From: an uncultured archaeon
Lineage (GTDB): Archaea; Asgardarchaeota; Thorarchaeia; Thorarchaeales; Thorarchaeaceae
Direction: 5' to 3'
Length of the DNA stretch: 32,000 nt
Assembly (NCBI GenBank): GCA_964354495.1
Contig: CAYHAA010000008.1
Span: 1 to 32,000 of the forward strand
The notes below the pieces were generated by a model that made no database searches, had not been told where the DNA came from, and saw only the letters and a list, made by a program, of their open reading frames with translations. Within the stretch, counting starts at the first letter, position 1, and each line of letters begins with the position of its first letter. Shown one piece after another: positions 14,115 through 15,152 of the stretch. The translations under genes were made by a program, and so were the position numbers.

Positions 14115-15152
14115 TCACTCGGTCATCTTCTTCATGTCGAGGTCTCCGACACGGGTCCGGACAATTCTGCCCACGTTTCCAATACGTGATCGAATCTCCT
14201 CAATTTGCTTGGTCCTCTTGTCTATCTCTGCCTTCCTCTGCTTCTCTGTCTTGATGTACTCCTCGTACGCATCGGCCCATTCCTGTCGCGTGTTTCGAAG
14301 TTGTTGTTGCAGGTGTTCGTACATGATCTTCTTGACATGTACAACATTCTTCAGAGTGAGAAGCTCGGTCTCCAGCTTTGACACAGTATTGGCAAGGTCT
14401 TCCTCGGCGCGCTTGAGCTCAGCACGCAGGCTCACTAGCTCGGTCATTGCCTTGCCAATCTGTTCCTCCTGATGATACGGGGAGTCCTTCTTCAGGAGGG
14501 TGACTGTATCGATCTGCGGCTGCTCCTGCGGAACGACAGCCACTGGCGTCTCAGGAGTCACTGCGGGCGTTGCCATGGGTTCGGCTTTGGCCTCCTCCTT
14601 ATCGCCAGTGATTAGTCCAACTAGAGAATCGAACGCATCGTCAATCTTCTCTCCAGTGAGCGCTGAGGTTTCGACGAAGATGACGGGCATGTTCAGCTTC
14701 TGGCTGAATCTCTCTGTGAATGCCTTTCCTTCCTCTGGCGATACGACCTCTTCCTTCGGATATCCCGGGCGAAGATCTATCTTGTTACCGATGACTATCA
14801 TCGGGGGCAAGGCACTCATGAATCCATGAGCCTCGACCAACCATTTGGATGCATTGTCAAAGGACTCTCGGTCGACCACTGAGTAGACAAGAATGATTCC
14901 ACTGGAGCCCTCATAATATCGCCTTCGAAGGCCCTGGAATGCTGGCTGACCGGCTATGTCCCAAATCACAAGATTGGTTGGGACGCCCTTATGCGTGATG
15001 GCCTTCTGGGCAAAGTCAACTCCTAGTGTGGGAAGGTAGCTGGATTTGAAACCTTCTTTCAGGTACTTGCGGCGGATGCTTGTCTTTCCTACGTAGCCGT
15101 CCCCGACAAGACATATTTTGTACTGCCTACGGATTCGTTCCATTCTTGACAT
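14115..15152 (-). CDS. Rab-like small GTPase with Pro/Ala/Val linker and long C-terminal coiled coil
   Basis: G1 GDGYVGKTS, G2 YLPTLG, G3 WDIAGQ, G4 NKID, G5 ETSAL. RabF-like segments LGVDF, YYEGS and LVYSV. Heptad-rich region at about aa 228-335. Confidence 0.92.
   Translation of the reverse strand: MSRMERIRRQYKICLVGDGYVGKTSIRRKYLKEGFKSSYLPTLGVDFAQKAITHKGVPTNLVIWDIAGQPAFQGLRRRYYEGSSGIILVYSVVDRESFDNASKWLVEAHGFMSALPPMIVIGNKIDLRPGYPKEEVVSPEEGKAFTERFSQKLNMPVIFVETSALTGEKIDDAFDSLVGLITGDKEEAKAEPMATPAVTPETPVAVVPQEQPQIDTVTLLKKDSPYHQEEQIGKAMTELVSLRAELKRAEEDLANTVSKLETELLTLKNVVHVKKIMYEHLQQQLRNTRQEWADAYEEYIKTEKQRKAEIDKRTKQIEEIRSRIGNVGRIVRTRVGDLDMKKMTE

Follow-up and report, generated by a model that had tools for sequence, protein, structure and literature searches.

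A gene of an uncultured Thorarchaeaceae archaeon, located in the 32,000-nt stretch of DNA analysed here (the window), encodes a Rab-like small GTPase whose C-terminus is extended by a disordered linker and a long helical rod. This rod is not a generic coiled coil but a conserved module with a fixed length of 133 aa at the extreme C-terminus, and it recurs both in zinc-ribbon proteins and as a stand-alone protein. Architecture and module family alike rest on solid ground. Two rods are predicted to pair antiparallel, so that the GTPase may act as a two-headed, anchor-free dumbbell.

The gene occupies positions 14115..15152 on the minus strand of the window. As read from the sequence, it opens with ATG and runs through 345 codons to a TGA stop (14115-14117). 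It lies on contig C8 of a 3.30-Mb genome with 97.7% completeness, in which it is single-copy beside about 20 small-GTPase paralogues. More than 100 full-length homologues of the 345-aa product were found at identities of 55-92%, which means that the gene is real, far beyond chance. A Shine-Dalgarno-like GAGG (15159..15162, minus strand), read from the sequence and putative in function, stands 6 nt before the ATG, and TATAAG (15201..15206, minus strand), about 50 nt upstream of the ATG, is a possible archaeal TATA box. Two plus-strand open reading frames, 13804-14472 and 14500-14829, overlap the GTPase gene and are presumably antisense artefacts.

The G domain makes up aa 1-184 (14601..15152, minus strand). 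The sequence-only reading had seen a complete set of G1-G5 motifs with the catalytic Gln retained, and all of them are present: G1 is GDGYVGKT (aa 17-24; 15081-15104, minus strand), switch I contributes T42, G3 is DIAGQ with the catalytic Gln (aa 65-69; 14946-14960, minus strand), G4 is NKID (aa 123-126) and G5 is ETSAL (aa 161-165). In 69 homologues these positions are invariant or nearly so. The P-loop carries Tyr at the position of Ras Gly13, and this Tyr is kept in at least 70% of the GTPase family. The Pfam family Ras (PF00071) matches aa 12-179 with an E value of 3.4e-41 and 140.9 bits (cut-off 21.6), ahead of Roc (93.8 bits) and Arf (56 bits), and TIGR00231 small_GTP matches with 78.3 bits (cut-off 42.5). 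As judged by its motifs and by family HMM scores above curated cut-offs, the protein is classed as a Ras-superfamily small GTPase.

Within this superfamily, the Rab-like character that had been proposed is supported by both sequence and fold comparisons. In sequence, the solved structure closest to the G domain is the Thorarchaeota Rab 7EZB (E 1.1e-30); among the 60 PDB sequence matches listed, the 59 that come after it are all Rab, Ypt or Sec4, and the best 50 Foldseek PDB matches of the AF2 model are all Rabs. The RabF-like segments that had been claimed hold only in part. When the alignment with Rab1 was inspected by eye, RabF1 was matched at 4 of 5 positions (LGVDF) and RabF2, RabF4 and RabF5 were partly matched (NLVIW, YYEGS and LVYSV), while RabF3 was poorly matched (AFQGLR). 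A maximum-likelihood tree was then computed for the G domains of 20 fused orthologues and 19 G domains of the same genome, Thorarchaeota paralogues throughout, with matches aligned over fewer than 100 query residues omitted. In this tree, whose bootstrap was not fully settled, the fused G domains form one clade (98/95), and two 201-aa stand-alone paralogues form its sister (91/83). The fusion of GTPase and rod thus arose once. Because of the Ras HMM, the Rab matches in sequence and fold, the motifs and the clade of fused proteins, the head is a Rab-like Asgard GTPase of a Thorarchaeota subfamily.

No membrane anchor was found in the protein. It terminates in DLDMKKMTE, and its only Cys in 345 residues is C14. 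The absence of a terminal Cys or transmembrane anchor, pointed out in the sequence-only reading, extends to the family: none of 121 homologues has a Cys within the last 10 residues. No transmembrane segment was detected in the protein (highest 19-aa Kyte-Doolittle mean 1.2), and it lacks the C-terminal Cys motif by which eukaryotic Rabs qualify for geranylgeranylation.

The genomic setting was examined in the window and at four homologue loci. According to Pfam, the window neighbours comprise an Rce1-like CPBP protease, a PAP2 phosphatase, CorA, a CBM96 surface protein, ICMT/PEMT-like methyltransferases and an aminotransferase, which are functionally unrelated to the GTPase. The CPBP protease gene (15346-16155, minus strand) is the immediate upstream neighbour of the GTPase gene and shares its strand, and two of the ICMT/PEMT-like methyltransferase genes lie at 10062-10940 and 7567-8067, both on the minus strand. 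A CAAX-processing context for the GTPase was considered from these genes and rejected. A relative with 86% identity keeps this adjacency of the CPBP gene, and three more distant loci do not; since it holds only in a close relative, and since no family member has a C-terminal Cys, the link is unsupported. Likewise, a conserved neighbour gene as partner was rejected, as none is kept across genera at the four homologue loci and by Pfam of the window neighbours. No roadblock, longin, GAP or GEF gene is adjacent at these loci or in the window, and the neighbouring genes examined there name neither a partner nor a cellular place. Two further observations concern the surroundings of the gene. The product of the convergent gene at 13665-14090 (plus strand) is rich in Cys, measures about 141 aa, contains several CxxC pairs and matches nothing in Pfam, and a 141-aa gene occupies the equivalent position beside a 74%-identical orthologue (L006:7060-7485). 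In addition, three loci of distant orthologues, which otherwise differ from one another, have a YjbQ-family gene 1-6 kb from the gene of the fused GTPase (L004:9994-10413, L006:12454-12915 and L007:2559-2978); it looks like a weak synteny remnant with no obvious functional meaning.

Between head and rod lies a linker, aa 185-212 (14517..14600, minus strand), rich in E, S, T, P and A. The low-complexity character noted earlier is borne out by AF2, whose pLDDT falls below 50 over aa 185-214, and the length of the linker varies from 18 to 170 aa (median 49) among 121 homologues. The rod module itself, aa 213-345 (14118..14516, minus strand), was delimited by its length, its conservation and its profile matches. 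Nearly all of it is a single long helix, aa 225-344 (14121..14480, minus strand), which AF2 predicts as unbroken with a pLDDT of about 96. The heptad-rich helix described in the sequence-only reading was thus recovered, and its family-averaged hydrophobicity has a period of 3.5 residues (power 1.46, versus 0.04 at 3.67 and 0.00 at 3.3). From aa 213 to the end, the tail is exactly 133 aa long in 84 of the 121 homologues. Its conservation matches that of the G domain: in 69 sequences, 11 of its positions never vary and about 26 are nearly invariant. The module opens with a D-S-x-Y cap motif, contains the central conserved segments K-x(4)-E and Q-E-W-x-D-A, and closes with R-V-G-D-L-D-M-K-K-M.

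When the genome was searched with the whole protein, three further proteins were obtained that match the tail only. P0122 (402 aa) and P0123 (368 aa) each have a zinc ribbon at the N-terminus, followed by a long Pro-rich disordered region and the rod module, and P0124 is a stand-alone module of 172 aa. All three align to the tail without gaps over about 125 shared residues, at 19-30% identity. The earlier description of the tail as a heptad coiled coil is therefore right as to the type of helix, but falls short in treating it as generic, because zinc-ribbon and stand-alone proteins have the same fixed-length module. When 1.84 billion cluster representatives were searched with a module profile, only 77 clusters were matched, 64 of them at E <1e-10; the fused protein of this genome covers profile positions 1-133 with an E value of 1.2e-62. 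In nearly all of the 77, the complete module forms the extreme C-terminus, in one of three architectures, namely behind a Rab-like GTPase, behind a zinc ribbon and disordered region, or alone. The exceptions are a few weak matches in long repetitive proteins.

A survey of the architecture in Asgard genomes, suggested by the sequence-only reading, was carried out by whole-genome profile searches. The window's own family yielded the rod module in 71 of its 76 searched genomes; 224 genomes drawn from 29 further Asgard families yielded none. The fused GTPase orthologue occurs in 57 of 86 genomes (this one included) and in 10 of the 16 genera of the family, and it is represented by one match in all but two of those 57 genomes. 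In public databases the homologues are named Candidatus Thorarchaeota, with a few labelled Hermod- or Lokiarchaeota. Comparison of the tail with known families gave little. In Pfam it met only sub-threshold coiled-coil families; the best of them, Golgin_A5, is non-significant because its 22.8 bits are below the cut-off of 31.7. NCBIfam yielded nothing relevant to the tail, its profile reached a best E value of 0.02 against PDB sequences, and the best score in an ESM Atlas feature search was 0.77, below the useful range. On this sequence evidence the rod module is an undescribed family, and as such a novel feature beyond the coiled-coil reading.

Several observations were made on the other carriers of the module. 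The genes of the two zinc-ribbon paralogues lie on contigs C37 (L001:1395-2603, minus strand; 402 aa) and C22 (L003:1030-2136, plus strand; 368 aa). Their N-terminal zinc ribbon is of the C4 type, and Pfam finds no family in them beyond it. The two proteins share a short, helical conserved motif, W-V-R-P-S-E-V ... E-K-A-x-E-A-F-A ... R-M-L-R-A-S-E, and their combination of zinc ribbon, disordered region and rod is the commonest architecture of the module family. The stand-alone module is encoded on contig C11 (region L002:8068-9607, minus strand). It is followed, 28 bp on and on the same strand, by the gene of a conserved 330-aa polytopic membrane protein (L002:8068-9060), which has an HExxH-like HETSH motif and no Pfam match; then come the genes of a 115-aa protein and of a divergent 526-aa coiled-coil plus winged-helix protein. 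The order of module gene and membrane-protein gene recurs on two contigs from other MAGs (L009:1070-2546 and L010:137-1613), and five other genomes encode the membrane protein at about 60% identity, some of them without having the stand-alone module. On the same contig C11, at L002:1862-4954 and 4-7 kb from the stand-alone module gene, a group of genes encodes two tandem Rab-like GTPases (173 and 196 aa), a xylose-isomerase-like TIM-barrel protein and P0125, a zinc-ribbon paralogue of 351 aa in which a second zinc ribbon stands in place of the rod module.

Self-association of the rod was examined by prediction of its dimer and by covariation. ESMFold2 was run with two copies of aa 215-345, with an alignment that we had built, together with three controls. 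The homodimer obtained ipSAE values of 0.56, 0.55 and 0.56, against 0.00 for the best control. Of 30 proteins whose solved structure is a pair of one chain, 20 reach the ipSAE mark, as does 1 of 23 solved as single chains; these counts hold here only roughly because of the author-built alignment. At least 97% of contacts are common to the three runs, and the pLDDT of the partners is at least 86. In the predicted dimer the helices are antiparallel, with 246 paired with 320, 267 with 299 and 281 with 285, so that residue i faces approximately 566-i; the predicted dyad is near aa 283, beside the invariant H280 and L281. Covariation was measured as APC-corrected mutual information in 179 module sequences (Neff 94). 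In the band i+j = 563-569, the register specified beforehand from the dimer model, the mean is 0.0149 versus 0.0046 +/- 0.0033 in permuted data (2 of 5000 permutations). An unbiased scan placed the best band at a centre of i+j = 564, although the untargeted test of this maximum was non-significant, as 93 of 1000 permutations reached the best band. It should be noted that the two approaches are not fully independent, because the input alignment of ESMFold2 may carry the same signal. This i+j pattern would also be expected of an intramolecular hairpin, but the straight helix of the AF2 model and a sequence free of Gly and Pro around aa 283 argue against one. The dimer model and the covariation support the view that two rods would bind each other as an antiparallel homodimer.

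The sequence-only reading had imagined a switch-plus-stalk protein that dimerises by itself. Its dimerising part agrees with the predicted self-association, but its geometry does not: an antiparallel pair would be a two-headed dumbbell and not a parallel stalk with two heads together at one end. A 120-residue helix in a coiled coil is about 18 nm long, and because of this length and the antiparallel sense, the predicted particle is a rod with a leashed G domain at each end.

On this basis we favour, with a little more than even confidence, a model in which a Rab-like switch with an antiparallel rod dimer is a bivalent dumbbell for anchor-free bridging or scaffolding. It is a well-supported prediction as far as the dumbbell itself is concerned. 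The flexible linker of variable length and the fixed 133-residue rod occupy the position of the hypervariable, prenylated tail of a eukaryotic Rab. Two rods would pair antiparallel into a coiled coil of about 18 nm, each end of which would bear one GTP-switchable head on a flexible leash. If each head binds its partner in a GTP-dependent manner, the particle could serve as a bridge or scaffold between two sites separated by about 20 nm or more, and it would do so without any lipid anchor.

The rod may instead be a docking module for a different conserved partner, which could be P0122, P0123, P0124 or an unrelated protein, for example a membrane protein, so that it would deliver the GTPase to this partner and would not be a self-sufficient homodimer; we regard this as possible but on the whole unlikely. 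In its favour, surface positions of the helix are highly conserved, beyond what a two-helix core needs. The conserved stripe N269, H272, V273, I276 and H280 lies outside the predicted dimer interface, which points to an additional partner or a higher-order assembly. The four paralogous modules of this genome, gapless over their shared length, and the 3-4 module copies in most genomes of the window's genus fit docking as well, as does the recurrent pair of stand-alone module gene and membrane-protein gene. However, three genomes of another genus, which are 96-99% complete, have exactly one module, and this one is on the GTPase; their zinc-ribbon paralogue is without the rod, and in one of them no stand-alone module ORF precedes the membrane-protein gene. 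No paralogue is thus an obligatory partner there, and an obligatory heteromer with paralogues is disfavoured. Moreover, the homodimer prediction passes its controls, and the paralogous modules are merely 19-30% identical to the rod of the GTPase.

Another possibility is that the rod belongs on the effector side. In its widest form, this would make the rod a Thorarchaeota-native Rab-binding effector coiled coil and the fusion a self-contained Rab-plus-effector with GTP-dependent assembly or bridging, while the forms with zinc ribbon and disordered region and the stand-alone form would be trans-acting effectors of the approximately 20 Rab-like GTPases; we consider this improbable. If it were true, Asgard archaea would have their first matched pair of Rab and effector, and a Rab-like switch could be localised without an anchor. 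As a direct alternative to the dumbbell, the rod would be bound in the GTP state by its own G domain or by other Thorarchaeota Rab-like GTPases, with auto-regulation or GTP-dependent head-to-rod polymerisation as the outcome, and the fusion would be a Rosetta stone for a GTPase-effector pair; this we hold to be quite improbable. Many solved Rab-effector complexes do contain coiled coils (Rab8-RILPL2, Rab8-OPTN leucine zipper and Rab1-LidA, taken from the titles of Foldseek PDB matches), and the module also occurs unfused in a genome with about 20 small-GTPase paralogues, its stand-alone copy lying approximately 6-7 kb from the two tandem Rab-like GTPase genes in an arrangement partly repeated in another MAG. 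On the other hand, AF2 left the G domain undocked on the helix (pTM 0.48), the genomic proximity is loose, and the conserved central patch may just belong to a wider helical core. Finally, the tail could be a helical spacer or low-complexity extension that lacks specificity and has neither a defined partner nor a defined oligomeric state; this might be suggested by the assorted sub-threshold Pfam families and the failure to find a solved or Atlas relative, but it is highly improbable in view of a conservation equal to that of the G domain, the fixed length, and profile matches that outline a narrow and specific family.

The dumbbell model invites comparison with known systems. The nearest is Thor-Rab (7EZB), a single domain of 182 aa whose C-terminus is described as truncated relative to eukaryotic Rabs and as having no extension (Tran et al. 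2024, PMC10933270). Both proteins have a Rab-like fold, come from the same Asgard lineage and are without a C-terminal prenylation Cys; in contrast to the single domain of Thor-Rab, the fused protein adds the linker and the 133-aa rod. In the survey of one Lokiarchaeon by Tran et al. 2024, unclassified extensions of GTPases are marked '?', and coiled coils are mentioned nowhere in that paper (PMC10933270). Our incomplete search of the literature found no Asgard Rab-like GTPase described as having a coiled coil at its C-terminus, nor any paper on this family.

The large Rabs of eukaryotes, Rab44, Rab45/RASEF and Rab46/CRACR2A, likewise combine a Rab-type G domain and a coiled coil in one chain. 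They are built of an EF-hand, a coiled coil and then a C-terminal Rab domain; the coiled coil of RASEF mediates self-interaction, and a C-terminal prenylation site has been reported for Rab45/RASEF-S (PMC8303950). It was correctly recognised beforehand that the arrangement in the Thorarchaeota protein is the opposite, since in the large Rabs the coiled coil precedes the G domain (PMC8303950). Besides the reversed order, the Thorarchaeota protein differs in having no C-terminal Cys and no EF-hand match in Pfam, and no sequence relation between the coiled coils of the large Rabs and the rod was detected. A coiled coil behind a small GTPase is nevertheless not unprecedented, as might have been concluded from that contrast, because ARL13B has one: in this atypical Arf-family GTPase, the coiled coil is directly C-terminal to the G domain and is followed by a proline-rich low-complexity region (PMC10011728). 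Its likeness to our protein is in this position of the coiled coil; the differences are its Arf-family G domain (the Thorarchaeota head scores 56 bits with Arf versus 141 bits with Ras in Pfam), its attachment to membranes by palmitoylation, and the order of the parts, which in the Thorarchaeota protein is linker and then rod. The coiled coil of ARL13B is also much shorter than the 133-aa rod.

Rod-like coiled coils that work with Rab GTPases are known from golgins, OPTN, RILPL2 and LidA, but in eukaryotes rod and Rab are separate proteins. Golgins typically form parallel dimers that are much longer and have their anchor at one end. Closer to the predicted geometry are the HR2 of mitofusin and the C-terminal helices of septins, antiparallel coiled coils that bridge two copies, in membrane tethering in the case of mitofusin and in filament pairing in the case of septins. 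Their G domains are of the dynamin and septin classes and not Ras-like, and with no sequence relation to the rod, the likeness would be an analogy of mechanism only.

According to Liu et al., most multidomain architectures of Asgard eukaryotic signature proteins are lineage-specific, and the rod-GTPase fits this pattern. Because the module was found in one Asgard family only, it is hardly informative about the eukaryotic ancestor; it is an invention of one lineage and no candidate ancestor of eukaryotic tethers. For the biology of the Thorarchaeota themselves it bears on a more immediate question. Asgard archaea have many Rab-like GTPases, none of them with a prenylation site (Tran et al. 2024, PMC10933270), and because these sites are absent, the placement and the targets of such GTPases are a question. 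The rod-GTPase family offers one concrete and testable answer: a conserved, probably dimerising rod in the position of the lipid anchor. Zinc-ribbon proteins and a stand-alone protein use this rod too, so that in this genome the answer involves a small and defined set of proteins, one GTPase fusion, two zinc-ribbon forms and one stand-alone module.
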